Below, piece by piece: positions 1-56,300 of a stretch of 64,000 bases of DNA. The notes beneath the pieces are model-generated. The model saw only the letters and a list, made by a program, of their open reading frames with translations, was not told where the DNA came from and did not search any database. Both the position numbers and the translations under genes were made by a program. This stretch comes from Protoeuglena noctilucae. Its lineage: Eukaryota. The stretch covers positions 434,001 through 498,000 of the forward strand of contig OY253686.1 in the NCBI GenBank assembly GCA_958009085.1, in the 5' to 3' direction. Every line of letters starts with the position of its first letter. Positions within the stretch are counted from its first letter, which is position 1.

Positions 1-407
1 ATCCCGGCTCGGGATCGCCGACCCGCGTCAAGGCGTCTCAGGTGTTCACCAAGTACCTCTGGCGGGAGCAGGCGGACGTGCGGGTCGACGAGGGCGAGGT
101 GCCACTCATCGTCGCCACGCAGGCGAGCCACGCGTCGCATGTGATGGTCCTTTATACTTTGACTGGATGTCGCGTAATCGCACATGTGACCATCCCAGCT
201 TGCATATGGATACCAGGAGCCAGCTCTAAGGCAATCGCTGCAGTCATGTTTGGCCGTCACATCGGACCCCTTTGTGTCTTACTTCCGCAGGTGGTCTCGG
301 ACTATCTGACGGCCTATGATGGGGAGGATAGGATGATGCGCGCTGGGAACAAGCCCGTGGTCCAGTACACGTACCGCATGGCCTTCTTCAAACCCCGGGC
401 AGTCTAG
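1..407 (+). CDS. 3' end of a DUF6816-like protein (partial; one GC-AG intron at 123-290)
   Basis: Spliced peptide ...KASQVFTKYLWREQADVRVDEGEVPLIVATQ|VVSDYLTAYDGEDRMMRAGNKPVVQYTYRMAFFKPRAV*, TAG at 405-407. Family assignment is from recall of the TKYxW...IVATQVVSDYL...YxYR pattern. Confidence 0.55.
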   Translation, partial: PGSGSPTRVKASQVFTKYLWREQADVRVDEGEVPLIVATQASHASHVMVLYTLTGCRVIAHVTIPACIWIPGASSKAIAAVMFGRHIGPLCVLLPQVVSDYLTAYDGEDRMMRAGNKPVVQYTYRMAFFKPRAV

Positions 408-449
408 AACTGCAACTACCTTCGTGAGATTTGAAGCTCTGACGCCGCC

Positions 450-3400
450 TTAAGCCCTAGCACGCTTGTCGTCACCCGCACCCTCGCCCTCGCCCTCCCG
501 GCCCCTCTTCAGGCCCCGCTGGACGCCCACAATCACCAAGTCGTCGTCGCTGTCATGCCCCGCCCCGTTCACAACCACCTCCAAGTCGTCGTCATCGCCA
601 TCGCCAATCAACGCGTTGCACGGCCCCGCCCCCGACGGACCCGCCCTGTCCCCGCCGTGCCCCGCGCGCTCCGCCGGCACGTGTGCCTGCGCATGCAGCA
701 AGTCACAGATGCAGTCCGTATACTGAGCCACAAGCAAGGTGCTTTGCACCCCACAGTGCATGCCCCACACCCCAAGACCCCACATGCCCCAGCCACCGCA
801 TGCCCCGGGCACCTCCCCGCTCGGCTCACCTTGGGCGCCTCCCCCGTGAGTTCAAATCCCTCCGGGAACTCCTCGTTATTTAACACTGCGACGTGCTCCA
901 CGCGCAGCCGAACATCGAAGTCCTGCATATGGTCCTGCAACACCATGACGCTCCCGCCCCGCACCCCGCGCTTGGGGAGGCGGGCGAGGGGCATTGAGAG
1001 GCGGCGCTTGTAGACGTCCAACTCGTCCTGAGGGAGAAATTTGAATTTGAGGATCTTCACAGAAGCGTGGGTCGAGGCGTGAGATGGCGCGCCTGGGTGG
1101 CGACGATAGCCATCGCCCGACAGCCAGCACTTAATAGATATCTATCGCCCCAGATCTATGTAATATATCGCCCTTTGTCCCATTCTCGTCCTCACCTCGT
1201 CCAGGTCCGACCCCTCTTCGTACAGCAGGTCCGTGTCGTCGCAGTCGATGAAGGGCCGCGCCAAGCCGAGGCGACCCTTGGCGACCTTGCTCACCACGTC
1301 CCCCAGCGTGGCCGTCTCTGCATGGTGGGGCAAGCATGTAACGAAGCGATGTGGGACATGCTGCTCTAAGAGAGGGCTCGTAAAGAGACGTGTCGGACAA
1401 AGAGTTGTGAGTAAGAGCAGTCAACCATTACATGCCCCATCGCATGCCCCTGCGCCGCTCACCCGTGTTGACACGCAGTAGCATCTCCGCCTTGCCGCAC
1501 GCGATGCACCCGGGCCTGGGTTTCGGGGGCGGCACCGCCTGCAGGAGCTTGCCTCGGAACCTGGGGCGCTGCTCGCTGGCGGGGCTGAGGCTCGTCCACT
1601 TGCAGTGCTCCGAGACGCCCGCCAGGACCTGCGGGGGATGAGGGAGCGAGAGATATGGCGGAAGATGAGAGAGAGATGATTGGTGGGAGAAGTGAGGGAT
1701 GGTGTATTCAAATGACAGCTACTTCATCTCATCTCATCCAATCGGATCCCATGAAGAGTTGATGCTATCCATGTCGAAAGCCTCACCTTGAGGGCCTCGA
1801 TGGTCATGAGGCCAGCGACGATGGCGTTGGTGGTGGCGATGGCGTGGATGATGTTGCCCGCCATGCCCTTGCACTCAAACAAGCCCTGCTTCGGGATGCC
1901 GTAGCACGACGCCCTGCACAAAAGGGAAAGACAAGCCTCTTGCCACCTGCCTGAGAGAAGGCAGGCAGGTTCGATACTGCGGCAACAGCCGCCACCGCCA
2001 CCGCCACTCCCACAGCTGGCAGTGCCAACAATCCCCACAAACCTCCACCCCTCTCCTACAAACACCCATCCACTCTTCTCTCGCCTGAGGTTCGATGCCG
2101 CGGTGACGAACGCCACCGCCACATCGTCGTCCTTGTCAAAAACCGCCGCCCCCAGTTGGTCCGACCGGGGCCCCTCGTGGTACTGCCAGACACACGCCAG
2201 AAACACCCGGGCGCTCTCGGCGTCCGTCCAGGGCTGCTGGGTCTTCCGGCACAGCTCCCGCAGCGCCCCCGACAGCGCAGGCGCCCCGTCCTCTCCCTCA
2301 GGGACCAACACATCGATGTCGAGCGGCCGCGGCTTGGACCTGCAACGGGCACGCAGCAGAGTCTATTGTTAATGTCCATCTACATCCAAAGCTTTTACCG
2401 AGGTCGGCACCGGAAGGCACAGTTACGTGGGACGGGAGAGAGCGACAGTGCCAAGCATCAACAACGCTCGTGGGATTTGAACAGCACCACGCTCACCGCG
2501 CCTTCCAGAGGTCTTCCATCCGCAGCACCCTCTCGATGTCCGTCCCGTACACGCGACGGAACACCCTCCTTGCAAACGCCACCGCGCCCTCGCCCTCGCC
2601 GCGCAGAAAGACGCTGCGGTGGGTCCCTGAGCCACCGGGCTCCTCGGCGCCGCCGTTCGACGCCCCCGCCTCGCCGTCTGCGCCCCTGGCTGGCTCGCCC
2701 TCCGCAGCCGCAGCGGCGGGCTCCGAGGCAGCGGGTGCGGCGTCACGTTCGTCAAGATCGGTCACCTGGGCCAAGTCAGAACAAAGGGACAATTGCATCA
2801 ACTGAGGCCCAAGAAAGGTGACCGCATACACGCAAGTGCACATAGCCAGTCCAGGCTTGAAGGCTGCTGAGGTCGGTTGTCAATGACTGTGCTACGCACG
2901 GCAGCAAAGCCCATGCAGCCGCTGTGCGCGCCTCGCCTGGTCCTGGGGCCCGAAGAGGCGAGAGAAGAGGAGCTCCTTGGCCCACACGACGCAGTGGATG
3001 GGGCGGTCAGGGGTGTTGCGGATGGTGCAGATGGGGAAGGTTTTGGGGGCGGCGTGCGGGGCGCATTCGAAGCACTCGGTCTCGCCCTTGACGTGCACCA
3101 ACGCTTGACCCTGGTAGCCGTTCGTACCCGACTCGAGCAGCGGCACGCCCGCGGCCAGGCACATGCTGCGGGCGAGCGAGGGAGGCACAGCGGGCGTGTC
3201 GCGCTGCCGAGACTCCAAATCCCGCGCCTCACCCGCAAAATGGCACAGATGCAAATAAGCAGCGCAGATGGACGAAGCAGCACAGAAATAATCGTCACCG
3301 GTTCACGTGGCGGCGCGCGTCGAGGTTGTCGAGCCCGTTCAGGACCAAGCGGAAGCCCCGGAACCAATCGACGCCGAATCGCGATTCCTTGATGTTCGCT

Positions 3401-3882
3401 TGAAGTGCTTCGATCTTGACGCCCGGGCGCATGCGTGCAGCAGCCTCTCCAGCCACCTGCAAACGGGACGCACGTCGCTGTGCCACGAAATGCCCGATCC
3501 GCGCTCGCAAAGGGGACATGCTGGCCTCCTGCTCGCCTGTGCCTTGGCATGTCCGACATGGTGCTTCCGGAAGAGGAATTGGCGGTTCATGTTCGACGTC
3601 TCAATCGTATCCAGGTCGACCACGGTGATGTCCTTGAAGCCCGACAGCACCAGCGTCTTCAAAAGCTCGCACCCGATGCCGCCTGCGACGAACGAGGCGC
3701 ATGGCCATTGCTGTACTGGCGCGTCGGACCAGCGAGCATGCCGACCCTTTGGACGGGCCAAGCGAAGCGCTTCGCACGCTGCCGGCCCTGTCACCTGCTC
3801 CCACGCACAGGACGCGCGCCTGAGCAGCCAGCGTGCGGACATCGCTGCTCACGACACGGGACTGCCACTCCGCGGACGCCAT
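450..3882 (-). CDS. UBA2: SUMO-activating enzyme subunit 2 (about 11 exons)
   Basis: Spliced motifs [61 protein letters not shown], catalytic [51 protein letters not shown]. Acidic/basic tail ends KRARA*. ATG at 3882, TAA at 450-452. Confidence 0.95.
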
Positions 3883-4199: not shown

Positions 4200-7100
4200 A
4201 TGGAGGGCGTGGCGGGCGCCGGTTCGGGGCAGCCGGACCATGCCGAGGCGCGTGAACTGGCAGAGACGCTATGGACGCAAGTGACGGACTGCCTTCCGGA
4301 GGACGCTGCGGCCGTCTCGCGCCTCACGCTCGACCAGCTCCTTCGTGCCTCGACAGTCGACATCCAGGCGAGCGGACGGCGCACCGCTCGGTCGCCGGCA
4401 CGCGCTAACAAGTGCATATTTCACTGCGCATTGCAACACTCGGCGCCGCGCTGCCTGCAGCGCTATCGTAACCGATTTTCTGGCCCTCTTCACAGCAACT
4501 GGACGCAGCTGTGTTGGTTGTGCGTGAGGCGCTCGAATGGCACCTGGAGGAGCATCCCTGGGAACGAGACACGGCGACGCGAACTCGCCGAGTGGTACAG
4601 GCGAGCCCTGCAGTGTGCGTCACCGAACTCAGGACCCCAGCACTTGCTTGATTGTTGCGATGTGCGCCTCTCGTGTCCCTCTGCCCCCAGGCGTTCTCTG
4701 GCGTGTGGGATCTCGTCTGCACTCAGCTGGAGGCTTCATGTCGGCGCGGGGCCGGGTCATCAACGGCTGGGGGAGGCGCAGGGCTGGGCTCGGCGGAGGC
4801 GGAGGCAAATGCCATATGCCACCTCCTCCTGGCCCTCTGGGGCGACTTGCTGCTCGCCAAGGCACGAGCTGGTCTCCTCGGCGGCGACCGGGGCATGGAT
4901 GGGGCACCAGCCGTGGGCCAAGCAACCTCGGCTCGCGGCAGCCGAGGCGATGAGGAGGCCACACAAGTGGGTGTCGTGCCGATGTCCATTGACGCCGTCA
5001 CGAGGATCCCCTGGGGCCCGCGCCTGTGCGGAGCGGTCGCCCGCGTTGCGGTCAATGCGGCCTGCGCGTGCGGGTCGCTGCCTCGGGAGATCCTGGCCCC
5101 CCTGGCGTTTCAACTGGCGGGCCTCTGCACGCACGGCATGGCGCAGCTCCTCTCAAGGGCCCTGGCGATCGGCGCGGAGGGCAGCGATTGTCCTCATGAC
5201 GGCATCAGTGCTCTCCAGTTTGCGTCTTCAACAGATCCCAAAGATCTTGGGGCCGAGCGGGGCGTTGACGCGCCTGCTGGGGCAATGCTGGGAGGACATG
5301 CGGGTTTATGTGGTGACGCGGCGCAGGGGTTTTCGTCCACTACGGGTCCGTCGTGGTTGCCAACGACAGATGGGGCTTCTCTGCAGTCGCTGGCCGCCCT
5401 CGGTGCGGCATGGGAGCTGGGTCTGCCCGTAGTGTCGCCTGCGCTTCAAACTTCACAGCCGGCAGCTGGGGAGTCGGGGCAGAGTGCGAGCGGGAGAAGC
5501 GGGGCGTGTGGGGTGGGGCTGGCGGGGCTCAGCGAGGTGGTGGGGGACTTGCGTGTGCTGACGCAGTTGACGCGGGTGGTGGGTGCAGATGCGATGCTTG
5601 ACGGCGTGCTGTCCTTTCTAAACAAACGGGAGGGATGGACGTGTGGCAAGTGGTGCCGCGAGGGGTGCTGCGAGGGCTTCGCATGCGGCGCTGGCGAGGC
5701 GAGTGGCGAGGTGCGACGTCGGGTGGTTGGGGCTCGGTTGGCAGCCCCTGTGCGGTGGCTGGGCCAGTCAGTTGTGCCTAAAATGTTTACTTGTTGCGGT
5801 GCGCGCAGAGGGGAGGCGACGAGGCGGACGCGTGGCTGCGGTGGGTGGGGGCAGTGGCCGTCGTGTGCACTGTGGCGCGCGATGGGGACGCGCGCCGGCA
5901 TGCGGGTGCGCTGCTGGAGTGGGCCGCGACGCGCCTTGAGCCGCCAGACGGGACGCGCGCTGAGGGAGCTAGTGTTGACAGGGGCGAGGGCAGGGCAGGG
6001 CTGGCTGATGTGGTGGGAGGGGCGGTGGCGTGGTTGATGGTCGAGGCAGCCGGGGCGGCGCTAGTTACGACAGTGGCGGTGGATGGCGGGTCGTTTGGTG
6101 GCTGGGGTGGCTGCCAGGCTGGCGAGGGAGCTGAGAAGCCATGTGAGAGGGGCGGGACTACGGTGTTGGGGTTGTCTCTGAGCCGCATCGTCTGGGCTCT
6201 TAAGAGCGGCGGTGGTATCCGCGGCTCTCGCGAGAACGACAGGGCTTCTAATGGGACCGGGGATGCGTGCGGGGCAGCCGCGACGGGCGCGTTTGCCGCT
6301 CGCGTGGCAAAGGCGATGGGCCCGTGGTTGCGTGGCCTGCTGTCGACGGGCGCGCTGGTACACGCACCGCTGGGACACAGCAGCGACAGATCGTGCTGTG
6401 GGCCGGGGCAGGAGGCGGTGCGCTCGCTGTTGAGCGCAGTGGAGAGTCGGGCAGCCTCGTCCCATGACGCGGGGTGCGGGCTCTGGGTCGGGGCCCTCGC
6501 GTCCGCATCCGCGCTGCTGCAAGCCGGAGCGCCGGGTGAGTGCTTTGTTTTGTCATAAAAAGCGTTCATTTGGTCAGTTTGACGTGCCCCCTTGCTCGCT
6601 CTGATTTGCGCTGCAAGGTCGTGCGCAGCTCTGCAAGCCCCTAAACATCGCGTATTTTTCATTCAGCCAGCTTGCCCGCTCCCACAGGTTGCCAGGCGCA
6701 CTTCATCGACCCCGCCCTCCTCGTGGCCCTGGGTCCCGGTCCTGCCCGTCTGCTCCTGGTCAGCGCGCTCTCGTGCCGCAACCCCGACAGCGCTCCTGTC
6801 TCCGACGGTAACGATGGAACTCAAGACCGCTCTCATGGCCCCACTCATGGCCCCTCTACGGCTGAGGCAGCAGAGGTTGAGGCGGACGGCATCGTCGCCA
6901 CCCTCGAGTGCGCCTCGCACTTCCTGACTCATGCCGCGTCCCTCGCTGGGCGCAACGGGAGCTCTGTGTTTGAGGGACAAAGCGATGTCGACGTCTGCGC
7001 TCTTTGGCGACTGGCGGGGGCATGGGCGGCTGGGCGGGGCACGGAGTGGGGTGCCACGGCAGGACCCCAATCGGCGATGCCCTGGGCGCTGCGTTCGCGA

Positions 7101-12559: not shown

Positions 12560-12697
12560 GTTAAGTTGCTGCTAGCTTACGGAATCTGTTTTAAAAATGT
12601 ACAATGATTACTTTTCTGCCAGCCAATGGGTTGTGGCATGGAGCACCGTCAAGAGTAGCAATCAATTAATGACTATCATCGGCACAACGCTATCATG

Positions 12698-13503: not shown

Positions 13504-13672
13504 CCGACACGTGTGCACGTGTTTGTGCAAGCGATGCTGTCGAAGGGAGCGACGTGAGCTGTGCTCAGCCGCCAATGCAGAGGTGCCAGCGACACACCTT
13601 GTTTCCACTTAGGCAGTCGATTGCAGTGGCCACCGTCACTGGCCGCACATCCCTGGCGGTGGCGGTGGCGGG

Positions 13673-20108: not shown

Positions 20109-20977
20109 TCATAGCTTGGACCGTGGTGGCGGGGCGCCCTGGCCCTCTCCTGCGAGCACTTGCTCGGGGATGCCCAACAGCTGCGCCTGCAGGGCCTTGA
20201 CGCGCCCCAGCTCCTCCCTTGCGTAGTCAATCAGGTCGTCCGGGAACGGGATCTGAGAGAAGGCCTCCACGTTGCCCCTGCCCCACTCCTTAAGCATCAC
20301 CCTGCGAAGGCAGCGCGCCTCGCAGGTTTTGAGGAAACGCAGTTGACGCTATTGCACGCTATTGCACGTCGAGCGCCCCAACCGTCGCACCTGTTGGCAG
20401 CTACGTGGGAGATGAACTGGAGGAGGATGGGATTGATCGTCGAGGAGTCCAACAGGTCGCTGTGCTTGAATATGAGCTCCGCCGCTCGCTCGTTCAGCGG
20501 CTGCAGGACCTCGACCATCCACTTCCTGCGGCTGGGTTTATAGCACTCCGTGGGCGGTCGCGGACGAACGGGAAGCCGCGCCTCGCTAACGACATTTGAT
20601 AGCATTACTTGCCGGTAGGCCTCCGCCTCGGGACCGCGAGGGTTGCTCCGGACAACGTGCGAGAAGGTGTCAGAACTGCTCGCGTGGCTATGCTGCCGCA
20701 CCATGGCCTCGAAAGCGGCCTTCGACGAGTTGACGCATGCCAGGAGAGGCCCGTAGAGAAGCCTCACTACAAGACGACGCGACAGGCTCGCTGTTATGCA
20801 TGCCGCGTGCTGCGGGGCCCCGGTGGTGCTGTTCACATCCTTGCCTTGCTGGTTCACACGCTCCAGTCGACCAGCGCGCTGCTGGACCGTCCGCTCATGC
20901 CATGTGGTGAAAGTATACCCGGCCGCAGCCATGGCAATCGCGATGAGCTCCTTGGACATGGCCCCCCCAACCCCCAT
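20109..20977 (-). CDS. Protein of unknown function with N-terminal hydrophobic segment and C-terminal SKL (PTS1)
   Basis: Spliced: MGVGGAMSKELIAIAMAAAGYTFT...RLERVNQQ|VRLLYGPLLA...EAYR|KWMVEVLQPLNERAAELIFKHSDLL...HVAANR|VMLKEW...FPDDL...PRSKL*. Introns 20767-20844 and 20526-20612 are GC-AG. Confidence 0.8.
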
Positions 20978-22227: not shown

Positions 22228-22349
22228 TGTCTAGATAGCGTCGAGTTCCCAACGCATCGTTTAACACAGGCTTTTCAGCTGCCGATGCCAATACTGCCCC
22301 AATCCTGCCCCCGTCTGCTTCAAGCCTCCACCAGGTCCCAGCCCATCCA

Positions 22350-23751
22350 CTACTTGTCATATCCAAAGACCTGGGCGGGCCTCGCCGCGCCGCCGTCCTC
22401 GAAGCCCCGGAAGAGCTCCCCGGCCCAGTCGGGCTTGCACACGCGCCCCTCCTCGCCCGCGTCCAGGGCGTCCAGCCGCGCCTTCTGTGCCACCGTGAGC
22501 CGCCAGTCGGCCCAGCCGGCGAAGTTCTCCTCCAGATGCGCCCGCGACGACGCCTTGGGAATGACGGGGACGCCGCGCTGCGTGTTCCACTTAAGCACCA
22601 CCTGCATCGAGCACACGGTATTTTGCCACACCTCACGACACGCGCACCGCACCCGCACAGGGGTGGTGGCAACCGCGAGAAGGGCGCTTGGCAAGGAGCG
22701 GAGCCCCGCAGACCGCAGCCTCGCCTGCGCCGGGGTTCGTCCGACCTCCTTGGCCACCGCATCCACCACCTCGTTGTTGACCAACATCTTGCCCTGCCCC
22801 AGCGGGGAGTACGCCACGCACTGCACCCCCCGGCGTAGGCAGACGCCCACCATCTTGCGCATGGGCAGACGGGGGTGCAGCTCCACCTGGTTCACAACGG
22901 GCGGGATGCGTGCCGCTGCCAGGACCTCCTCCACCTGACAGGCACAAGGACGGGCGGCACGCCTGTCAGCCATGACTGACGGGGAAAAACAAACCCGTTT
23001 GCATTCCATTTATGTGCATTCCTATGTGCCGTCCTCTCCTCTCTCCCACCCTTGCACAGTCGACATCCAGGCATCGAGTCTGGACCTCACCTGCCGGACG
23101 GAGAAGTTGCTGACCCCGATGTTTCTGACGAGCCCCGCATCGACGAGCTCCTCCATGGCCCGCCACGTGGCAAGCAGATCCGCGTCCGTCACTTCGCTGG
23201 TGCCAGGCTTGAAGGCGATCGGCCAGTGGACCAGGTACAGGTCCAAGTACCCGCACCCTGCGCAGTCGCAAAGCGGGTCACGGTCGCCCAAGAAGTGCGC
23301 AGCATAGTGCGGCCTCGTTAAAGAAGTTACAATTAGCCGCACGCAGTTTGCGTAACTCAACGCTCTCACCGAGGTCCTTCAGCGTTTTCTCGCAAGCCGC
23401 CCGCACGGCGCCCGGAGCGTGGCAGTCGTTCCAAAGCTTGGACGTGAGGAACAGCTCGGCGCGGCGGCCCTGGTCGATGAAGGGGCGGATGGCCTGCCCC
23501 ACGACGTGCTCGTTGCCGTAGATGGCTGCGCAGTCGAGGTGGCGGTAGCCGATGTCCAGCGCGTCAACGACCGTCTTTGCGTCGCTCACGCCGTACGTCC
23601 CCAGGCCCACCATCGGCATCTTGGCGCCGCCCCTGCGATGACGGGAGGTGGGGCGTCCACAATGCAGTGCTTTCCGGGTGAGGTAGGGTCCGCAGCCCCA
23701 ACGGCAGAGGCAGACTCACCGGAGGTGGGCGTGCGTGGGCTCGCGCGTCAT
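22350..23751 (-). CDS. Aldo-keto reductase (5 exons)
   Basis: [69 protein letters not shown]. The D/Y/K/H tetrad is present. Confidence 0.96.
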
Positions 23752-24711: not shown

Positions 24712-26550
24712 ATGGCGGAGCTTGATCGGGAGACGTTTGTGAATAGCGGGGCGACTCAGAGGCAGGAGGTGAGGGTTGCGGGCCGTCGCCGGTCCCGGCG
24801 ATCCGCCGCAGGGAGGGCTGGCGACGCGTTCAACTCCTTTCATGCATTTGTGCCTGTCTGCTCCATTCCGGCCCATCGCCACACGACAGCATATACGACG
24901 TTGCTTCGCAGAGGGCGATGGTGGAGGGCGTGGACTTCCTCGACCTGACAAACTCACATCTGCACTCGCTGGACGCCGTTGAACTCCCCGAGGTGCGCCA
25001 GCGGTCCCTGTCCCGGCCAATGTCGCGCCATGCACCCGTGATTTGCCCGTATGAGGTTTTCGGCGCGCCTGACCTCGCCCTTCGCCCGCGGTGCAGTCGC
25101 TAACGGAGCTGGACTTCACCGCCAACCGCTTCAAAGAGTTCGACGCGCGCGTCCTTGCCCTGCCTCGCCTCCGAGTCCTGTCCTACCGGCAGAACCTGTT
25201 GGAGGACGCCTCCGCCGTCACGCAGCTGCAGTTGCTCAGCGTCCTGCAGGAGTTGGTCTTGCACGACAACCTCCTCAAGGAGCTGCCCTCCCTCGCCGGT
25301 AGGGCGCTCGCGTCGATCGTGACATCGCGTTTGCGGCTCGCGCAGCTGCCTGGCCGTCCCGAGCCTCAGCTCTCTCGTCTCGCATGCAGGGCTCACTGCG
25401 CTGACCAAGCTCGACGCGAGCTTCAACGAGATCAAGAGCTCGCAGCCCCTGACGACGCTCGGCGAGCACCGGAATCTCCGGGAGCTCTACCTGGCGCAGA
25501 ACAAGCTGAAGGACATGGAGGGGCTGGACAAGCTCACGGGGCTGCAGATGCTGGAAATGGGCAGCAACCGCATTCGCGTCATTGAGGGGCTGGGGGCCCT
25601 TAAGAGCCTCGAGGGTTTGTGGCTGGGGCGCAACCGCATCTCGGAGATATCGGGACTGGCGGCCCTGACCAATCTGCGCAGGATATCGCTCCAGGCGAGG
25701 GCCCGATGGGAGCGCGCATGCCAGTCCCCGCAGGGGCGGGCTCGTGTTGCGGGCTGAGACGTGCGGTCGAGGGTGCTTTGTCCACCTCCCCTGCTGCTGG
25801 CTTTATGGCGTGCCGGGGCAGCCCCAGCGGAGTTGCGTAGTCCATCCGTCGCACCTTGGCCCGAACTGGGCCCTCTGCTGTGCCCTGCAGACCAATCGGC
25901 TGGAGAGTATGCGCGGTGTGGGATGTTTGTTGGCGCTGGAGGAGCTCTACCTGTCATTCAATGGGATCAAAGTGATTGAGGATTTGGAGCGGTTGACGCG
26001 TTTGAGGGTACTCGACTTGGGCAAGAACATGGTGGAAAAGGCGAGAGGGGTTTGGGACACGACCCATCGTTTGCAGTGCCTGTCTCGTGTCTTTGCCATC
26101 GGCAGCTCCGCCGCGCCGTGCATGCGCCGACCACGCCGTCCGTTGTGACCTGCAGATTTCGGGTCTGCGGGGGCTGCGCAACCTGGAGGATTTGTGGCTG
26201 AACGACAACAGCGTGACGGGCACGATGGAGGATGTGGAGAGGGAGTTGGCGGACCAGAAACAGACCCTCAGTGAGTACGCACGACATGCGGGTGGCCGCA
26301 CGGGGCTGCCAGGAAGCGGCTGGGCGGCTGAACATCGTCGTGGGCCTATCGCATCTCCCGCTGCGCTGAGAGAGGGACGAACGCTGACAGCAGCATGCAC
26401 CCGGTACCCGCAGTCTCGCTGTACCTGGAGCGCAACCCGATCGTGCAGTCGATCGGGCCCAACTACGAGCGCCTCGTGTTCGCCGCCTTCCCCAAGCTGG
26501 ACCAGCTCGACTCGGACCGTTTCCGGCACGGCACGGTGTCAGCACGCTAG
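24712..26550 (+). CDS. SDS22: SDS22-like LRR protein (protein phosphatase 1 regulatory subunit 7)
   Basis: Serial LRRs (LTELDFTANRF, LQELVLHDNLL, LRELYLAQNKL, LEMGSNRIRVIEGL, LWLGRNRI, LEELYLSFNGI, LEDLWLNDNSV) and an LRR cap YLERNP...PKLDQLD. Confidence 0.85.
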
Positions 26551-34435: not shown

Positions 34436-36653
34436 CTATGCACGATAGGCCGGGGTGCTGTAGCACTCGTGCCCCAGGCAGTACCCGATGCTGTTGACGG
34501 CGTACTCAATGGCCCTCGCGAGGCCCACGTCCTGCGATTGCAACGCAACCACGCGCGCAGTCCAGCGATGCACCTGCCTAGGCGTCGCCAGGGTATGTAA
34601 TGTTGTGTGTCACCGCAAAGCCACTCTGCTCACCCGCACGTCCGCCTTGAAGTCGTCCTGGATGCCTTGGATCTTGGCCCGCTGCAGGTACCGCTCCGCT
34701 CCCTTGCCCGTGGCGATGGCCAAAGTGCGGTCCGACCCCCGGCCCTCCTTCTCGATGAACAGGAGGATGCCGTTGTTGCAGCCCGAGTCCCCGAGGCCCC
34801 AGCTCGAGACGACGTCGCTGGCGAAGCGCGCGCCCCTCTCCCAGGTGGCGTAGTTTTTCTGAAAGCAAGCGACCCAAGCCGGGCTAGGCGGCTGCGGCGA
34901 GGTGCGCCGTGCGCAGCGAGCTCGCCTGAAGCAGCCCTGTCTTCCGTCTCACCATGTAGGACGGGCTCATCTTGTCGACAATCAGGACGCCGACCTGCGG
35001 GGTCGTCAGTCGGGGCAGCCGTCATTGCAACGTAACCCAGGCATAGCGCTTGCATGGCTCAGAGCGCGACAGCGACTCAGGAGCAGCGAGAACGGTTGAA
35101 GCCTCCAGCCCGCACTGGTCGCACCGCGACACATGTGCAACTGGGGAAAGCCCAAGGCACTCGCAAGGCACTCGCAGTGGGTCATACCTGGAAGCCGTAC
35201 CGGTTCCACCCCGTGCAAGGGTCCGCGATGTTGGTTCCCCGGGCATTGCGAATGTCCACCAGCATGCTGTCGATCGACTTGATCTCCGCCGCCGTCAGGT
35301 AACCGTCCGGGTCGCAGATGTTGGTCCGGAGGGAGCCCGTGCCGCACCCCTGCCTGCGAGGCGACCGAGGGTGGCCGGCCGGACGTCAAGGCAACGACGC
35401 GACGCATCGTGCTGCAAAGAAGTCAGGGCAGAAGTTACGACACAGAGAGTTTCACTTGGTGAGCAAGGCGCGGGTCCTCACGGGTTCTTGTCGGGCCTGG
35501 GGATGTCCTTCGGCTGACAACCCACGCTGCAAAGGGTCCCGGGCTGGTAGGCTGGCTTCCCGTAGCAGCTGTGTCCCAGGCACCTGCGCGCACGGCCTCA
35601 TGTTCCACGGATGATACAGGCACAACTGGTGAGCTATGCGGCCGTCTGTGCCTGGCCAAGGTGCGAGGCGTATCATGCATCTGTACGCACCAGCCGATGT
35701 TGTGGATGGCGTTGTACAGTGCGCCCTCGAGAGACTCCCCTGCCTGCGCGTGGGTGGGTGGGCTAGGGAGCTATTGCTTGACAAGCACATGGCAGGGTGT
35801 CACGGGGTGTCGGCGCTGAGCCGCTGGTGCGACCATCGCCGCGCGTCATATCACCCGCATGTCGGCCACGAAGTCGCTCTCGATCCCCGATATCTTCTCC
35901 TTCTGGAGATACGGCGCGGCACCCTTGCCGGCGACGATGGCGAAGGCGCGACCGTAGCCCCACCCCTCCGTCTCGACCAGGACCAGGATGCCTGCGAGCG
36001 ACCCGGTAGTGTTTTCTTCAAGCATCCGAGGACGCGTGAAAGAAAGGAGCGCGCCGCGCCCTCACCGTTGTTGCACCGCGCGTCCCCGAGCCCCCAGTTG
36101 TTCGCCACGTCCGTCGCGAACTGGACCCCCTTCGCAGCCGCAGACGACCCGCTCTTGTAGTTGTAGTCGATCTTCCTCAAGAGAACCACGGCGACCTGCG
36201 AGGGCGCGGCGGGTCGTCGACACGGCGCCTGCAAGGTCAGGCTGCACCATGCGTGCCGTGCGCCCTCGCCTGGAAGCCAAAGGAGCCGCTGCAGGGATCG
36301 ATGATGTAGTCTCCATGTCCGATGCGAATGTTTGTGAGCATCTCGTCGATCGTGTCTGCGGCAGGGCGGCGAAGAGGCTTTGGACTTTGCCGGGCGAGGC
36401 ACATGGGCGATGGACAGAGGCTAGGTACACGCCGCTAGTCTCCCGCTGGCACCAACGCGGCTGGCGCACCGAGCCACGACAAGGACAGAAGCTCGTCGGG
36501 GTCGCACACGCTCGCGCGCAAGCCCTCGGTCCCGCACGTATATCGGTCGCGGTCAGGCTTGGGGATGTCCCCAGGGCGACATCCGTACGAGCAGAGCGCC
36601 GCAGCCGTGCCGGCCAGGGCGGCAAGGGCGCAGAGGGCGGCCGCCCACCGCAT
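34436..36653 (-). CDS. Secreted protein with two tandem MOLO1/TPM-like domains (about 10 exons)
   Basis: Signal peptide MRWAAALCALAALAGTAAA. Repeat 1: DIPKPD...SVCDPDELLS...DPC...FQ|VAVVLLRKI...FATDVANNWGLGDARCNN|GILVLV...AGKGA. Repeat 2: DIPRPD...NICDPDGYLT...DPC...FQ|VGVLIVDKM...FASDVVSSWGLGDSGCNNGILLFI...TGKGA. Ends YCLGHECYSTPAYRA*. Confidence 0.8.
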
Positions 36654-36943
36654 GTCGCAGGACAAGAACGCAGCCGTCGCCGACTGCCCGATAAAATACT
36701 CAGGATGAGAATGCTTCGAGTCCCCTGAGCTTTAGAGGGGCCGTTCTGCCAAAGCGCCGATAATCGGCGTCAACGCTTGGGGTTGACCCCTGTTCCTGGC
36801 GGGCATCGCCGGCGAAATCGACACCAGGCAACCCGCCGCCGTCCCGACCACTTTCAAGCGCCGATTAAGCCACGCTTGCTCGATTGATACTGCGCCTTGC
36901 CCCCGCGCGGGCCGTCCAGAGCGCTTTGTGCGCAAGGGCCTCC

Positions 36944-39540: not shown

Positions 39541-41084
39541 ATGCCGCATCGCGTGACATTGTCCGCGCACTGCACCGGTGTCGGGACCGGCCGCCGTGCC
39601 TGCCATCGGGCGCTGGGGAGGCCTTCCCGGCACGGGACGCGTCGACAGGCCTCCTCGGACGCGAGCCAGCTCCGAGGCGTGTTCCTCGAGTGCGATGGAG
39701 TGGTCGTAGACCTTCACATCGCTGGCCATCGCGCGGCATTCAACAGGCAAGCAAGTTGACCTGGACGTAGAGTCCTTGACCTCTACCGGCCCGGGAAATG
39801 CATCTAGACACTTTGACGACCTCATTTTCATGCATACGTCTGCAGAACGTTTGCGAATCTGGGCATGGAGTGCGCCAACTGGTCAGGGGCGGTCTACGCC
39901 GACCTGCTGCAGCGCTCGGATGGGACCGGCGAGTCGATGCTCACGAATTTCTTCTCGACCGTGGGCTGGCCCCTATCGGTCGAGACTTCCGAGCAGAGCA
40001 CTTTTGTTCGCAAGGTGCACGCCATGAAGCAGGAGGCGCTTCGGGAGCTGCTGCGCACGGACGAGGTGCCGCTGCGGTGAGCTCGCGCCTGCGCTGCCCG
40101 CGCGCTGCTGCATGCCCTTATCTTCACATCTAAGCGACAAAGACGAAGACGAAACGATGCACTCATGGAGCCCGGTCTTTCGCAGGAGCGGGGCGCGGGA
40201 GCTAGTCCAGGATGCCGTGCTGGCCGGGGCTCGCGTGGGGCTCGTGTGCTGCACCTCGTCTGCGCCGCTGGACGACGTCGTCGCGTCCGTGCGCCGGCAG
40301 CTCGGTCCCGGCATCTCGTCCCGCCTGGAGGCGTTCACGGTGCCGGGTGCGCTGGGCGACGGGCCGAGCGACGTTGGTCAGGCGATCGACGAGGCAAAGA
40401 GGGAGGTGAAGCGGACGCTGGCGCAGGCGGCGGTGGACTCTCTCAATCGAGCAAGCGGGCCCGACGCGGCCGCCCTGCACCCTTCCCTCCGGGGCGGTGG
40501 CAGCTGGCAGCAGGTGCAGGGCGAGTTGGTGTGTGTAAAGGGTAGCAGGCCAGATGCTGCCCTCATCGCCTGTGATGGGATAGCACTTCATGGATGCCAC
40601 CATTGCATCTTGAGCTCTACGGATAAAGTTTTTCGTGCTTATCGCTCCCCAGGTGACACCAGAGTGGGTCCGGGAGTGCTGCGTGGTCATGGGCGTGACG
40701 CCCGATACTTGCGCGATGCTGTCGACTCAGGCGTCCACCATCACCGCCGCCAAGGCCGCGGGGCTCATGACCGGGGCGGTGCAGACGCTGGTGAGGGCGG
40801 GGTCGATTGCTGTTAGTCACGCTGTGTAGGCACTGCGAGTGCGAGTGTGTGTTGAGAGATAGCTGAGAGTCGGTGACCGGCGTCGTGATGGTGGTGACAT
40901 TGATCTGTGTGTAGCCCATGTGTGCGCACCCTGAACCCTCCTCACGGCTCATCACCTTCTTGCTCTCCCGCAGGTCAACGCGAGTGGGAGCCTGGCAGAC
41001 GCCGATTACAAATTCGACGGGCTCGGGGCGGGGGGCGGGGCCACGTGGGCCAAGCTGCAGCGGCTGCACATGGCAGCTCAGTAG
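39541..41084 (+). CDS. CbbY-like HAD-superfamily protein (5 exons)
   Basis: Transit-like N-terminus, VFLECDGVVVDLHIAGHRAAFNR|TFANLGMECANWSGAVYADLL, FFSTVGWP, PLR|SGARELV, AAKAAGL, KFDGLGAGGGATWAKL. Confidence 0.82.
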
Positions 41085-47538: not shown

Positions 47539-49456
47539 TCATTTGAGCGAGTATGGGTCGTAGGCGCCCTCCGGCGGGTCCACGGTGGCCGAGAATGCCA
47601 TGTAGTTGATCATCTCGTAGAAATCGTCGTGGCGGAATTTGTCCACCAGCAGCTGCACGTCGTGGTCGGAGAGCCACTTGAACTCCAGGTCCACGTTCAC
47701 CACCTGCTTGAACTGCTGCTCCGTCACGTGGCCCACCAGGCACGGCGAGTTCTGCGCAGGAAGGGCGTGGGGGGCCATAGGTGAGGGCCGGGGCGGAAGG
47801 TTGAGATGGGGACGCAGGTGCAGAGGCTGTGAGAGCAGTCGAGGGCCGCGGAGGGCAACAAGGGAGGGCAGTGGGGTGGAGAGACGGTGGGGTGAGGTAT
47901 GGTCGGGTGGGGTGACGGTGGGGTGGGGCTACGGGCACCCCCCTAGCACCATGGATGAGTAGCAATTATCCAGCATAGCTTCTCGCCTTGTTGCGCGCCG
48001 CGTCGTCGAAGAAAGGCTTGACCAGGATGCCCCGGCGCAGGACCTTCTCGCGGATCTCCTGCAGCATCGCCTCCAGCCGCGCCTCGTCCTCCTCGGCCAG
48101 GATCCTGGGCGCAGGGAGGGGCGTGGGGATGCAGGGTGGGGTGGGATGGGGTGGGGTTGAGGGAGGTGCAGGGTGGGATGGGATGGGGTTGACAGTGGTG
48201 CAGGGGGGGGACGCCGGGAGGACCTGTGTTGTAATTATCTTTGGCATGCTTGTTGCTGTTCCCGCCACGTCTCAGATACCGTAAGCTTTCCCTGTGGCCG
48301 CTATGTGCTGCATCCCTGCCTCACCCAAAGTTTATCCTATAAAGGCAGCCCCCCAATGCCTCACCTGGAGCTCCTCTGGTACCTCGTTTTGTCCAGGAGC
48401 TCCTCTGGCTCGGCAGGGACCTCGGCCAAAGGCGTCTTCTCGAGGTTGGCCACCGTGAAGACCGTGTCGACGTCCTTGCAGAACGAGCGGTAGTTGACCA
48501 TCTTGAGCGAGTCCGTCTTGTCAAACGTGTAGGCTTCCGCGAGCCTGCGGGGGACAGGGGACGGCCGACACACGTGGCGAACGCTTGGCGGTGTGCTGCC
48601 ATGCTTGGTGTCGGCGACGCCGGGCGGAGCTGCTCGGCGCAGTGGCCGATGCAGATGTACGTAATGTATCGAACACGCAAGGAGGCGGTGCGCGGGGCCG
48701 CCGCGCGCGCACCTCTGGAGCTCGTCCGTGGAGAGCGCCTTGTTGAGGCCCGCCATGTTCAGCCCGGCGAGGAACTGCGTCGGCGTGATGTCACCCACGC
48801 GGAGCTGCATCCAGAAAGCGCGCGGAGCTGAGCGGCGCGGGCGCCGGGGGCGCTGGCTCCCGCGGGGCGGCCACAGAGCGCGGCACAGGCCTGCCCGCAT
48901 GCCCGGGGGACGACAGGGGCGGGCGAGGAGGCTTAACATGAACCCGGACCGTTGCAAATCTATGTCGTGGTTTCGCCGCGAGTCGCAAGGCGCGCGGCGC
49001 GTCCTCGACAGGTGCGGGCGGGGCGGCGCATCATCGCCCAACATGTGACCCGGCCACGCCCACGCGCAGGGTTTACGGCATACCGGAGAAGGCATGCGGC
49101 TTTGACATAGATAAACAAGTCGAGATGAGCCGAGACATGAGACGAAGAGGCGTGTACGCGCCCGCAGGGGGCCCCACGTTCGCGAGCGCCTCACCTTGTC
49201 AAAGTCGCGGAAGAACTCGTTCAGGCGGATGCGGTTCTTGTAAACATTCTTCTTCACCTGCAAGCGATGCAACCGACGCATGTTCAGGGGACGCGGGGTG
49301 CTGCGCGGGCGGCAGGCGACCCATGCAGTGCATGAGGGACTCCGGACGGGTCGGCGGCGAGGAGGCGTGGCAAAAGAGCGGGCCCCCTCGGCCCGACGCC
49401 ATGCTCGCCTTCGCCATCGCCTGGTCGAAGCCAGGGACGTCGACCGTGGCCACCAT
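47539..49456 (-). CDS. EF-hand flagellar protein, FAP115-like (6 exons)
   Basis: MVATVDVPGFDQAMAK|VKKNVYKNRIRLNEFFRDFDK|LRVGDITPTQF...VNYRSFCKDVDTVFTVANLEKTP...RRGILVKPFFDDA...GHVTEQQFKQ...INYMAFSATVDP. FAP115 similarity is from recall only. Confidence 0.7.
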
Positions 49457-50347: not shown

Positions 50348-53300
50348 ATGGCGTCCGCGGGGGAGCGTTCCGAGTCGCGGCTGCCAGGCCCGCAGAAGTC
50401 CAGGCCCGAGGGCCTCGCGCCGAACTTCACGGTAACTTCAAGCGCCGCACAGTGCTGCCTGCAGCTCCGCGCTGCGTCTCTGCTGCGCGAATCCAAACGC
50501 GATTTCCATCGCTTCTCCGCAGTTGACGGCTGAGGCTCCGGCGCTCGAGTCCGCGCCCGACTCCTACTTCCTCCGGCCCACGCGGTCCCCCTCGGTGGGC
50601 GGATTCCGAACCACGCCGCCGGTCGCGGGGCTCGGGACAGAGAAGCGCCCGCGCTCCGGCGGCATCCTGCGGCGGAATAAGCGGCGCGTGGATGCCCGCC
50701 GGCCCGTGCAGGAGTCCCGGCCGTCCACGGAGGCCGCGAATGCACTGGCGAGTCGAGACATGCGCATGCGTAGCACCCGTATCTGCGTGTGCCAGCGCTA
50801 ACTGGCATCCCGCCGCCTCGCTGCAGGTCCGCGACATCCTCGCGGCGTCCGCCGGGGTCCCGCGGCCTCCCTCCAAGCACACGCGCCCGGCCGCCTCGTC
50901 CCTCACCGTCGCGAAACGCCCGCGGCCCGCGGTGGGTCCCAGCCAGAGCATGGCGAGCCTCGCGGCGACCGGGAGCCTCTCCAGCGGTGCGTTCGCGGGC
51001 CCGGGGCGCGCGGCGGGGACCGGGGCGCAGGCGGGTGGGGGCCTGGGGGAGGTGGTGGCGTCGGCGGCACGGTACGCGCTGCCGGGTATGCCCGCGCGGC
51101 CCTCCCTGCACTCGTCGCTGCTCCGGAACCTCAAGAGCGAGAGGGACATCGTGGGGGTGGACGTGGTGCTCGGGGCAGGCGAGGGACGGTTAGGGGGGTG
51201 GACGCTGGGTGTCTTGGTACGCTTACCCTTGATATGCTTCACATAAACGGCCCACCCTCACCCTCACTCTCACTCTTACTCTCACTCTCACCCTCACCCT
51301 CACCCCCACCCTCACCCTGACCCTCACCCTCACCCATCCCCACTCACCCTCACCCACCCCCAGACTTCCTTTTGCCCGAGCGCCCCGAGACCTTCACGGG
51401 ATTTAAACCCCCGACCAACACGGGCGCGTTCGAGGACCACGGCCCTCACCAGCGCCACGCGATGCAGACGGCGATTGACAATGATGAGGCAACGGTGGGG
51501 TTCAGAGTGGCCTTGGATCAGAGCATCCCGCCGGGGATCGTGACGGGGGAGGACGCGGTGGTGTACTTCATGAAGGGTGAGGGGTGTTAAGTGGTGTTAA
51601 GTAGTTTGATTGTGGGTATACAATGTGGTGTACTTCATGAAGGGTGAGACGGGGTTGGAGTCGGTATGATCGTAGTGTGGTTGATGAAGGTCACGGGGGA
51701 GTGACCGTGCTGGATAGGAGGTGGCGAAGGCAAGGCCGGCGACTCCAAAAGCCCCCCCCCCCCAGGCAACGCCAAGCCGGGCCTGATGCTGTACGGCAAC
51801 TACACTCGCGGCCACATGCCCAATGACCTCGACTTCCAGCCATTTGACTTGACCATCGTGCCACGGGAGATGAGGGACCCCACGCACTACGTCATCACCA
51901 GCACCAGCGTCACGCAGGTGAGGGGGAGTGAGCGTGCTGTGCGTCCAAGACGGGCCATGCGCGGAAGGGTGCGATGCTCTCTTACGACTATAAGCACGCT
52001 CTCTCGCACTATACCAACCATCCACGCAACCTGCTCGCCATCAACCCCATCCCTTACCACTCACCCGGTTTCACCCTCCCCCTCTCCCCCCTCAGATCTT
52101 CGCGGATGGCGGGGACGCCGACTCCCAGCTTCTCCCCGAGTGGCTCCAGGACCGGCAGGTGTTCAAGATGATCCGGAGGATGAACTTCTTCCGGTCTTTC
52201 CGCATCATACGGGCGTTCAAGCTGTGGCGGCTGCACACGCGCATCCTCAAGCACGAGAGGGCGCACAAGCAGCTGCAAGGCGAGGGGCGGTCGCGTCGTG
52301 TCGTGTTGTGTTGTTTGTTTGTAAATGGTTGTTGTATCAGAAGCACACAAGCTGCTGCAAGGCGAGGGGCGGCTCGCGATGTGTTGTGTTGTGTTGTTTG
52401 GTTGTTGTTACCAAGAAGCATGTTGCTTGTACTCTTGCAGAGCACCTGCTCCTCATCCACCCCACCTACGGCCCCGTGCTGCGTCGTGCCGCTGCCGCCG
52501 CCGCCTCCGTCCACGACGACCACCGCACGCACAAGTGGGCGCGCAAGAGGGACGGGACGTGGGTGCGGCAGGCGGTCAAGTCGTGGCAGCCGGAGGACGG
52601 GTATGTGGACCCTAACTGGCGGCCCACGGCCAAGCAGCTGGGCATCACGGGGCTGCTGGCGGGGGTAGGTGAGGGGCGAAGGGGAGGTGGGATGGGCGAT
52701 GAGGATGCACGGACTGACAGCGACTACTGGTAACACTACTCACACTGCAAATGTCAACCTCTACTAATACCGGACAAAATTGTCACTAAGTATTACTAAG
52801 TAAACGTCATTACCATTACTATCATCAACCCCTTGCAGAGACGCACGACTTGCCGCTCAAGCTCCCCTCGCTGGTGTCGTTCCGCCAAGGGGCCATGGAC
52901 AGCGCATTCGAGGCCATCGAGAAGACCGTTGATGCCATCGTGGCGATGCTGGAGCCGGAGGGGGCGGCGGCGGTGCGGGCGCTGCAGGTGAGGGGAAGCG
53001 GGGGTGGGGGTGGCAGTGGGGTTGGCAGTGGGGGTGGGGGTGGGGGTAGCGAGGGGGGTGGCAGTGGGGGTGGGGGTGGCGGTGAGGGCGCAGGTGCAGG
53101 CAAGCGGGGAAGCGGGCGTATCTGATACATTTGTACATGTCAGTGCATCTTCATTCAAATCCTCATCTTATCTCAGGAGACCAAGCCCCGTGATCCCACC
53201 CCCGAGGAGCGCGTGCTGGGCCGCGTGGCGCGTGCGCCTGGCACCCTGGCGGAGTGGCGGGAGAAGAGCATGTATGCGGCAAAGGAATCGATGGCGGAGG

Positions 53301-56300
53301 CGCAGAGGAGGACGAAGGAGGCGGAGGCACAGGTGGGGTGCTTGAGGGTGGGGGTGGTGGGGAGCGGGGAGGGGTTGCGAAGGTGCTACGCAGCGCAGCG
53401 CAGTGCAGCGCAACACAGTAGCACTATGTACGACCATAACCCGCGTATCTATTCTCCAACGTTCCCCACTTTGATCGACCCCACCCATCACACCCACCCT
53501 GACCCACCCACCACACTCCCACACAACACCACCCACCCACCCACCCTCGCACCCCTCCCTCGCCCTCCAACCCCTCCCCTCTTCGCTCCACCTCACCCAC
53601 CACCCCCAACCATTGCCCTGACCAACCCACCACCCACCCACACCCACCACACCCACAACCCATACCCACCAACCACCCACACCCACCGCACACCCACCCA
53701 CCCCCCCAGGTCGCCCTGATGGGTCGTTTAGTGCGTCTGGTCGACTATATGCTGGCGGAGGGGGTGGCAGAGGCCGTGCGCACGTCAAGCGAGGCACTGA
53801 CGCATGTGCTGGTACGCACACGGTCGCTGTTACTGGTAGAGGGCAAGTCGAACATCGAATACGATAAGGCGGCGGGGCCCAGGGAGGGGGAGTCATCGGT
53901 GAGGGGAGTGGCAGGGTTGCTGGATTGTATAGTATATACTATAAGTGGTATGTCTAGTTACTGTGTTACACAAGTGAGCCATTGACAAGGCGGCGGGGCC
54001 GAGGGAGGGGAGTCGTCGGTGAGTGGGATGGAGCATGCAGTGGGAGGCAATACGCATAATTACTCAACACCTAGTAACTTTATACTAATCGCCACTATCA
54101 TCTCTTCAATTCAACGCAGATCACGGCGGAGCTGGACGTGATGCGCCGGCAGCTGCAGGGTGGCGCCACGCGCTCCCGCAGCACCAAAGACGAGGGCCCT
54201 CGCGTGCTGTCGGTCAAACTGACATTGGATCCCGATCTCGACACCGTGATTGGGAGCACGGAGGGAATGCTCGTGGCGCTCAGGACACGGGTGGCGCAGG
54301 TGAGGGGGGGTGGGGTTGTGGGGTTGTGGGGTGGGGTGGGGTTGTGGGATGGGGTGGTGTAGGTGGGGCTGGTGGGGGGTGTGGATGTGGGTGGGGTGGG
54401 TTGGTGGGTTGGCTAGGGTGGCGCAGGTGGGGTGTGGTGGGTGTGGGTGTGGGTGGGGTGGGGTTGTGGGGTGGCAAGTGGAGCTGGGCCAATGCATGAA
54501 TCCCCACTAACCCCATCCCCACTAACCCCACCCCCACCCCTTCACCCAGACCCTTCGCCTCACACCATCTGCCCCCTCCACCCCTAGCAAATCAACCAAC
54601 CCATTCCCACTAACCACACCCCCACCCCTTCATCTTCACCCCAGACCCCCCGCCTGGCCCTCTCTCCCCGCCTGACGCCCTTCCTGCCCAACGGCCAACC
54701 CCACCGCCTGATCAGCATCGAGCGCATGGTCGACCTGCTGATGGACGCCGAGGCTCTCACGCGGCGGGTGCGGGTTCGATTCTCGCGGGACTTCAAATCG
54801 GCCATGGGCGAGCGGGGGCTCAAGGCGTACTTCGCGTCGCCCGAGCGGCTGCTGTGGGTGTTCACGTGGCGGGCGTCCGAGTACAGGCGAGGGCATAGAA
54901 TTGTAATTGCTAATGGTATGTTAATCACTGTTACTTGCATAATAGTAACAGGACTGCTGTGGGTCTTCACGTGGCGGGCGTCGGAATACAGGCGAGGGCC
55001 ATGTTGTATGTGTGGGTAATATTGACTATACAATGACAACCAATGACAACACAGCTGCATGTGGCAGGCATACCCATTATTCATAATTTATTACGAATAC
55101 TTGATCATTAATTTTCCTTGTCGTTCCCAGGAACGCCGTGGTGGACCCCGACGAGTTCATCCGCGACCTTCAAGGCATGGTGGCGTGGCAGGCGCAACTG
55201 GCATCCGCACCCGCCGAATTGCAATTGGGCACTTTGCGCGTCGACGCAATGGGAATCTCATCCCGAGTACTCCCGGAGGTGTCCCGCGTGGTGGCCGAGA
55301 TGACCAACATGATCATGACGATCGTGACACGCGGGTGCCAGAAACTGCAGGGGTTATGTGCAGATGCCATCGCGGCGCTGCAGCAGCGGCCCACGCAGCT
55401 GGGGGAGTTCGCCGAGTTTATACGGTCCATGGCCGCGCACTACTCGGAGGTGAGTTGACTGTTATTATAATAGTATAGGTGAGGGAGTAACTATTACTAT
55501 TATTACTATTACTATTATTACTATTACTATTACTATTACTATTACTATTACTATTACTACTATTACTATTACTATTACTATTACTATTACTATTACTATT
55601 ACTATTACTATTACTATTACTATTACTATAACTATTACTATTACTATTACTATTACTATTACTATTACTATTACTATTACTACTATTACTATTACTATTA
55701 CTATTACTGTTACTTTTACTATGACTATGACTATCACTATCACCAACCATCTCCACCCACCCCATCACCGCCCACCCCACCACCACCCGCACCCCCACCC
55801 CAAACGCAGGAGGGCGAGGGCGTGCGCGAGATCGAGGAATCTTCCGCGGTGCTCCACAAACTGGCGCGCATGTTCGGAACATCCCCATCCTTCACCTCAG
55901 CAAGGGGCGTGCCCGCACCCGCACCCCCGCCCCGCGCCCCGCCCTCGCGCCCGCCCAATCGCGATCGCAATGCCGATAACGATGACGATAACGATGTCGA
56001 TAACGATACCGATACCGACGCCGAGCACACGCGCGCGGTGATTGACCGGATGCCCCCGGTGGTTCAGTCTGCGTGGGACGCGACACAGCGCGCTCTGGCG
56101 GACTACCACTCTGCCAGAACGCAGGCCAAGGACTACGTGGAGAGTTTCCGGAACATGGCGGCCACGTCGCTGGTGCAGGCCGCAATGCACCAGGAGCGGG
56201 AAGTGACGAGTGAGGAGTGGGGGGTGGGGTGGGGTGGTGGTGGGGTGGTATGGGATGGGATGGGCATGAGGGATGGGATGAGATTGCAAGGAAGGCAGTG

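Follow-up and report, generated by a model that had tools for sequence, protein, structure and literature searches.

We analysed a 64,000-nucleotide stretch of contig OY253686.1 (assembly GCA_958009085.1, positions 434,001 to 498,000 of the forward strand; hereafter the window, in whose own coordinates all positions are given), in which introns with a GC donor and an AG acceptor (GC-AG introns) recur across unrelated genes. The window has a G+C content of approximately 64% (0.53-0.68 over 16 bins) and is gene-dense, with intron-rich genes on both strands and, by the gene model described below, some 10 introns per gene, a density far above that of Micromonas. Pfam matches on open frames identify DUF6816, UBA2, calcium-dependent kinase, SNARE, aldo/keto reductase and leucine-rich-repeat (LRR) genes, together with Yippee, alpha/beta-hydrolase, duplicated TPM/MOLO1, ABC-transporter and giant dynein-related AAA genes. 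A preliminary description of the locus had listed about 20 introns with GC donors, and we find a GC start and an AG end on the proposed strand at 20 of 20. Their donors conform to the described motif G/GCRAG, mostly AG/GCGAG (the slash marks the exon-intron boundary): 17 read GCGAG and three GCAAG, G precedes the cut in all 20, and the full AG/GCGAG is present in 16. All 20 thus begin with GCGAG or GCAAG and do not match the RTATCCTT-like donor motif of U12-type introns. Eighteen of the 20 are supported, five by RNA and 13 by homology-type tests, and a high frequency of GC-AG introns in the window is thereby confirmed.

GC-AG introns and the evidence at each site

The 20 introns are listed below, with the score of the listed junction and that of the best GT alternative where spliced peptides were compared with homologues; in these tests every in-frame combination of a GT or GC donor with an AG acceptor lying within 45-60 bases was enumerated for each intron.

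123..290 (+): GC-AG, last intron of the DUF6816 gene; its exons match the Pfam DUF6816 profile at 151-183 and then 184-217, contiguously
1914..2084 (-): GC-AG in UBA2 (SUMO-activating enzyme subunit 2); top of 74 candidates, 272.0 vs 255.1 for the best GT
2766..2936 (-): GC-AG in UBA2; top of 18 candidates, 440.3 vs 360.3
3457..3536 (-): GC-AG in UBA2; top of 39 candidates, 374.9 vs 353.0
20526..20612 (-): real in-frame intron of 87 nt, stop-free, with a GC or a GT donor, in a small conserved gene; 29 residues absent from four homologues
20767..20844 (-): GC-AG in-frame intron of 78 nt, stop-free; 26 residues absent from four homologues
22602..22724 (-): GC-AG in the aldo/keto reductase gene; RNA joint in four of four runs
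25695..25890 (+): GC-AG in the leucine-rich-repeat gene; the 22-residue LRR register is exact across the junction, and the gene model predicts it
26041..26155 (+): GC-AG in the LRR gene; RNA joint in four of four runs
27685..27818 (+): GC-AG in the Yippee-like gene; RNA joint in four of four runs
28440..28557 (-): GC-AG in the alpha/beta-hydrolase gene; RNA joint in four of four runs, CT..GC on the plus strand
28695..28903 (-): GC-AG in the same alpha/beta-hydrolase gene; RNA joint in four of four runs
36196..36269 (-): GC-AG in the first copy of the duplicated TPM/MOLO1 domain; profile and paralogue positions
39747..39845 (+): GC-AG in a CbbY-like HAD hydrolase gene; PDB chain 4uav_A, a solved plant CbbY-like protein
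47752..47986 (-): GC-AG in a small conserved algal gene; top of 36 candidates, 328.5 vs 246.0
49258..49408 (-): GC-AG after exon 1 of the same small algal gene; one homologue, boundary approximate
50748..50826 (+): candidate GC-AG in the giant dynein-related AAA gene; gene model; 149 vs 155 for a GT alternative, against the homologue P0121
51179..51363 (+): GC-AG in the giant AAA gene; top of 18 candidates against P0121, 261 vs 243
52280..52440 (+): GC-AG in the giant AAA gene; top of 16 candidates, 400 vs 386; tblastn pieces abut at residue 429/430
54887..55130 (+): GC-AG in the giant AAA gene; top of 18 candidates, 458 vs 437

RNA contigs of four metatranscriptome runs were placed on 20300-40299, the part of the window that contains 10 of the 20 introns, and yielded 44 RNA joints there. 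Among the 15 joints listed, 10 are GT-AG and five GC-AG, and a sixteenth mapped joint (38328-38453) is GT-AG; the RNA tally covers these 16 of the 44 joints, GC-AG introns make up 5/16, and the other five proposed introns of the region lie outside the joints listed. The five GC-AG joints correspond exactly to the introns at 22602-22724, 26041-26155, 27685-27818, 28440-28557 and 28695-28903. At each of them we enumerated every cut permitted by the ambiguity of the joint and found GC..AG to be the sole splice pair, with GT..AG possible at none.

The placed RNA also bears on gene structure elsewhere in the region. The RNA-confirmed GT-AG introns 32272-32392(+) and 38328-38453(+) sit where the gene model ends coding, and either the reading frames continue there or the introns are 3' untranslated. 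At 25524(+), midway through a predicted LRR exon, 255 unlike letters precede the matching sequence in the contigs of all four RNA runs; the first 30 of these were searched for in the window and not found, and the letters could come from a paralogue, from an alternative upstream exon beyond the window, or from repeats that were tangled in assembly. At 22223 one contig of run X10 (depth 4.4) lacks one base that the other three runs have, probably through assembly error or as a rare variant.

Homology extends the evidence to genes outside the RNA-mapped region. Each of the three UBA2 introns ranks first against 14 homologues, 14-17 points over any alternative and 17-80 points over the best GT junction; at 2766-2936 the gene model picked the same donor with another acceptor (2802-2936), and homology prefers the acceptor of the preliminary description. 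For the giant AAA gene a single long homologue is available (P0121, 5376 residues, 47% identical), against which the introns at 51179, 52280 and 54887 lead the best GT junction by 18, 14 and 21 points. The stretch around 50748-50826 is poorly conserved with respect to P0121, a parse of the window restricted to GT donors takes 50706-50826 instead, and the GC-AG intron there stands as a candidate only. In the small conserved algal gene two homologues (P0151 and P0152) run unbroken across the junction at 47752-47986, which scores 14 points over the next placement and 82 over the best GT; at 49258-49408, where one homologue is available, GC donors take the top two placements (81 and 80), and the best GT placement scores 71.

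The introns of the small gene at 20300-21178(-) are both stop-free and multiples of three in length, and the reading frame is therefore uninformative there. The GC-AG junction at 20767-20844, missed by the gene model, is the top of 42 candidates (241.5 vs 204.3 for the best GT) and 14 points ahead. For 20526-20612 the GC-AG version scores 295.2 and a GT-AG placement shifted by +4/+4 scores 296.0, while the splice signals are 3.2 (donor) and 2.3 (acceptor) for the GC version and -1.1 and -3.3 for the GT version; the intron itself is real, and its donor may be GC or GT. A same-species protein search with this gene returned only the window's own read-through open reading frame (P0146), a 226-residue database call identical to the window sequence and translated through both introns of 87 and 78 nt, which makes it a mis-called protein.

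Two further sites were assessed in the coordinates of a domain profile or of a solved protein. Downstream of 36196-36269 the exon begins at MOLO1 profile position 69, and the paralogous exon of the second copy ends near position 68. At 39747-39845 the upstream exon aligns with 4uav_A up to residue 27 (E 0.11) and residue 11 of the downstream exon aligns to residue 38 (E 0.0024), so that the exons are collinear on the plant protein and contiguous to within one residue, with both E-values weak.

The giant dynein-related AAA gene (49584-64000, +) continues past the window end and contains an N run at 57002-57201, around which P0121 residues 1147-1382, some 235 in all, find no match; the gap thus probably hides exons. 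At E <= 0.001, the 438-residue exon of the gene matches only 25 relatives in a set of 1.84 billion representative sequences. The introns of the gene carry simple repeats (51253-56619 and 63774-63979), including (CACCCT)n, (GGGGGT)n, a 24-nt unit repeated eight times and 43 copies of ACTATT at 55490-55740; many introns of the gene begin with GTGAGGGG and end C-rich.

Donor context and frequency of the GC-AG class

The GC and GT donors of the window share one consensus, AG/GYGAG, in which Y is T or C. All five flanking positions match it in 16 of 20 GC donors vs 10 of the 32 GT donors backed by RNA or homology, and A at +4 combined with G at +5 occurs in 20/20 and 25/32, respectively. Taken together, the AG/GYGAG context accommodates 16 GC and 18 GT donors, and all other contexts four GC and 80 GT donors (Fisher p = 2e-7). 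The RNA-only set shows the same distribution: the perfect context is found in 5/5 GC and 2/11 GT donors, with no GC and nine GT donors elsewhere. The preliminary description had proposed relaxed 5' splice-site recognition as one explanation, and this proposal is not borne out: outside +2, GC donors depart from the consensus less often than GT donors do, the opposite of a general relaxation. The pattern is the one expected of an unchanged U1 that tolerates a mismatch at +2 only when all other positions pair. A scan of the window with Rfam returned no family at threshold, and hence no small nuclear RNA (snRNA) within the 64 kb.

The frequency of the class was estimated with a self-trained Viterbi gene model that covers both strands of the window; it replaced one-strand models that over-predicted (129 and 249 introns), and itself fuses adjacent genes. 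Of its 134 predicted introns, 41 have a GC donor; the model is exact for 18 of the 20 proposed introns and for only 11 of the 16 RNA introns; its totals are therefore rough and were used only with decoy controls. In these, GT introns alone served to train the donor matrix and one extra donor dinucleotide was permitted per run, with the following outcomes.

Extra donor GC: log-odds gain 275; 41 introns, 25 with a donor score of at least 3
Extra donor GG (decoy): log-odds gain 81; 21 introns, 2 with a donor score of at least 3
Extra donor GA (decoy): log-odds gain 76; 19 introns, 2 with a donor score of at least 3

Since the decoys yield about 20 weak introns each, about 20 weak GC predictions are noise. 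The gene model and decoys together leave approximately 20-25 real GC-AG introns among 115-135, in line with the original estimate of one in six among about 125 introns, and the GC-AG share in the window is roughly 15-30%. Furthermore, AGGCGAG occurs 38 times in the window vs 12.9 +/- 3.9 in shuffled sequence, and AGGTGAG 34 times vs 8.8 +/- 3.1. The described spread over unrelated genes likewise holds, with GC-AG introns in at least 11 genes on both strands (DUF6816, UBA2, aldo/keto reductase, LRR, Yippee, hydrolase, TPM/MOLO1, HAD hydrolase, two small genes and giant AAA). Beyond the introns listed above, the gene model adds three candidates that the preliminary description had left out:

34859..34925 (-): further candidate GC-AG intron; gene model, AG/GCGAG, donor score 5.2
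4368..4690 (+): further candidate GC-AG intron; gene model, AG/GCGAG, donor score 6.0, in a gene without known family
5699..5808 (+): further candidate GC-AG intron; gene model, AG/GCGAG, donor score 5.7

The interval 4200-14436(+) is a long stretch of 0.68 GC with a GC skew of approximately +0.13 to +0.15 and very long open frames (855 and 649 residues), which no family matched in the Pfam search; the gene model is unreliable over it.

Source lineage and known GC-AG-rich algae

The DNA of the window is also present in marine metagenome runs and in runs of an organism coded 'organism A', and the four marine metatranscriptome runs carry 39-47% of its words. The top UBA2 homologues are those of green algae and plants, with no same-species transcript or protein among the database matches for UBA2 and a best exon identity of 85%. 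In a quick single-gene tree of UBA2 (47 of 120 matches plus the window protein), the window protein falls on a long branch within a 22-row core chlorophyte clade (SH-like approximate likelihood-ratio support 95) and is at most 51% identical to any row of the tree, while other window genes match Coccomyxa, Volvox, Haematococcus and one pedinophyte at 33-54% identity. From these sequence comparisons, we take the source to be a marine member of the green algae that is close to the core chlorophytes, without a close sequenced relative in the databases searched.

The novelty implied by the preliminary description does not hold, as abundant GC-AG introns have already been published for other GC-rich algae. 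As far as the available text of these sources goes, GC-AG introns amount to 39.6% in Aureococcus, 22.2% in Micromonas pusilla and 7.7% in Chlorella sp., against 1.3% of 2.46 million introns over all species (Iwata and Gotoh 2011, PMC3033335); to approximately 14-17% in Aureococcus strains and 14% in Pelagomonas (bioRxiv 10.1101/2024.10.30.620910); and to 56% of 241 manually curated junctions in Emiliania huxleyi, where nine GC junctions were verified by reverse-transcription PCR and ab initio predictors miss GC junctions (Feldmesser et al. 2014, PMC4028052). The available portion of Pucker and Brockington 2018 (PMC6310983) yielded no algal GC-AG shares, and a literature search for GC-AG frequency in pedinophytes or a matching alga found no paper.

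The window alga, with roughly 15-30% GC-AG introns at 64% GC, resembles M. pusilla CCMP1545 and Chlorella sp. in being green and GC-rich (65.9% GC in M. pusilla; second highest of 61 species in Chlorella) with GC-AG shares of 22.2% and 7.7%, but is neither of them: its UBA2 groups with core chlorophytes in the tree and shares no more than 51% identity with any row. It is like Aureococcus anophagefferens and Pelagomonas calceolata as GC-rich marine algae with 14-40% GC-AG introns, ascribed by the respective authors to GC content in the text available to us, but its genes are intron-dense and of green-algal affinity, unlike those of these stramenopiles (0.19-0.92 introns per gene). Emiliania huxleyi (65% GC genome) is likewise GC-rich with abundant GC-AG introns, but belongs to the haptophytes and far exceeds the window alga in its GC-AG share. 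The window alga is thus one more GC-rich alga with abundant GC-AG introns, fitting on every feature tested.

The rare GC-AG introns of animals and plants (~1%) have a U2-type identity and an AG acceptor in common with those described here, and reportedly also adhere more closely to the consensus elsewhere in the donor. The window differs from them in a frequency 10-30 times higher and, for GC and GT classes alike, in G at +3 (GYGAG), where the animal and plant consensus has A.

Origin of the GC donors, competing explanations and significance

The comparison of intron positions points to old introns that changed their donor. The UBA2 intron 3457-3536 has a GT-AG counterpart of the same position and phase (residue 121.0) in an AT-rich metagenome locus (L049), and the GC intron 36196-36269 in the first TPM/MOLO1 copy corresponds in position to a GT intron, 34995-35187, in the second. 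Both relatives carry GT at the matching position, which favours a T-to-C change over intron gain, in two cases only. The orthologous structures came from 66 metagenome-contig loci, the best of them 78% identical in one exon and with noisy junctions in the GC-rich loci, and from these only the L049 position at residue 121.0 was used. The two TPM/MOLO1 copies lie in one gene model (33106-36653, -) and have at least two intron positions in common.

Among the causes first proposed, GC-biased substitution at +2 therefore fits best as far as the GC-rich window, the shared donor consensus and the GT donors at matching positions are concerned, while the mutational origin itself, by T-to-C change, and a canonical U1 in the source alga are what we infer. 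We consider it probable that the GC-AG introns of the window are ordinary U2-type introns with C for T at +2, processed by normal machinery, GC-biased in origin and confined to perfect donor contexts. In such a model a GC-rich genome would undergo frequent T-to-C changes at +2, the resulting C would be retained only at donors whose remaining positions all pair with U1 (AG/GCGAG) and offset the one mismatch, and GC-AG introns would come to make up roughly 15-30% of introns over unrelated genes; the share would be expected to hold genome-wide.

Several points weigh against this reading. The preliminary description picked GC introns by their motif, and the context effect is inflated in the set of 20. 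The RNA-only set holds 16 introns, with 29 of the 44 joints outside it, the gene model recovers only 11 of these 16 exactly, and the evidence base is a single 64-kb window. Intron interiors have similar GC contents in the two classes (0.612 in GC vs 0.582 in GT introns, p = 0.20), and a plain link of donor type to local composition consequently lacks support. Micromonas RCC299 combines 64% GC with 2.7% GC-AG in the available text of PMC3033335, and GC content alone is thus insufficient as an explanation. Finally, GC introns are patchy, with none of approximately 13 introns in the ABC-transporter region (41-47 kb) and none of approximately 12 in 57.2-64 kb.

The competing explanation that survives best, although we regard it as unlikely, is a change in the splicing machinery of the lineage (in U1C, LUC7 or PRP8, or in the sequence or modification of the U1 or U6 snRNA), such that C at +2 is recognised like T. 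Nearly half of the perfect-context donors are GC, near the expectation from composition alone, which would suggest little cost of the +2 C, and base modification or proteins of the U1 ribonucleoprotein are left open for Aureococcus and M. pusilla in the available text of PMC3033335. However, GC donors account for only 4/84 donors in imperfect contexts, a classic compensation by unchanged U1, and the putative U1 genes that the same source gives for Aureococcus, M. pusilla and Micromonas RCC299 have a canonical 5' end, 11 nucleotides long. Because the first two keep this end despite the high GC-AG shares given above, a variant U1 or U6, as first suggested, appears unlikely in the source alga by analogy.

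A high share restricted to the window or to a few genes, and not a property of the genome, is decidedly less probable still. The patchiness noted above, together with 4/11 introns being GC in 1-4.1 kb and with the 64 kb examined, would fit such a local feature, but GC introns occur on both strands, in 11 or more genes unrelated to one another, and similar genome-wide shares have been published for other GC-rich algae.

We consider it very improbable that the GC-AG introns are a misreading of nearby GT donors or of retained coding sequence, although the statement that the protein frame "needs" GC donors was overstated: seven of the 20 lengths are multiples of three, the GT-only parse gives an overlapping GT intron for 16 of 20, and GT-AG options of equal or slightly better score exist at 20526-20612 and 50748-50826. 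At the five RNA-confirmed sites, however, GT..AG is excluded and the GT-only parse recovers the true intron at 0/5, keeping 22602-22724 unspliced, misplacing one donor and, at the three remaining sites, running excessively long introns over true exons; for 13 further introns the GC junction either outscores all GT junctions or joins positions that are contiguous in the profile, PDB chain or repeat register. A misreading is already refuted at most sites. Equally remote is a recent burst of introner-like mobile introns with GC donors, for which speak the many introns in 51-64 kb with G-rich starts and C-rich ends, several with simple repeats, and against which stand the GC intron positions in common with the distant AT-rich relative and with the internal paralogue. 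When the pooled introns (134 from the gene model plus the RNA-mapped and proposed ones) were all compared with one another by blastn, only eight short low-complexity matches and no family emerged.

Gene predictors restricted to GT donors would mis-build a large fraction of the source alga's genes. The near confinement of GC donors to perfect contexts provides a measure of donor compensation within a single window, and the short list of GC-rich algae with abundant GC-AG introns gains one, rather than a new kind of splicing being revealed. More tentatively, and with considerable doubt, we propose that the source may be a marine lineage not sampled before, placed close to the core chlorophytes, that reached GC-AG richness independently of Micromonas pusilla, Chlorella, the pelagophytes and the haptophytes, with C at +2 near neutral in otherwise perfect donors. 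If true, this lineage would serve as a further independent replicate for testing the recurrence of changes in spliceosomal proteins or snRNA modification, and would bear on the origin of high GC-AG shares, termed an enigma in the available text of Iwata and Gotoh 2011 (PMC3033335).

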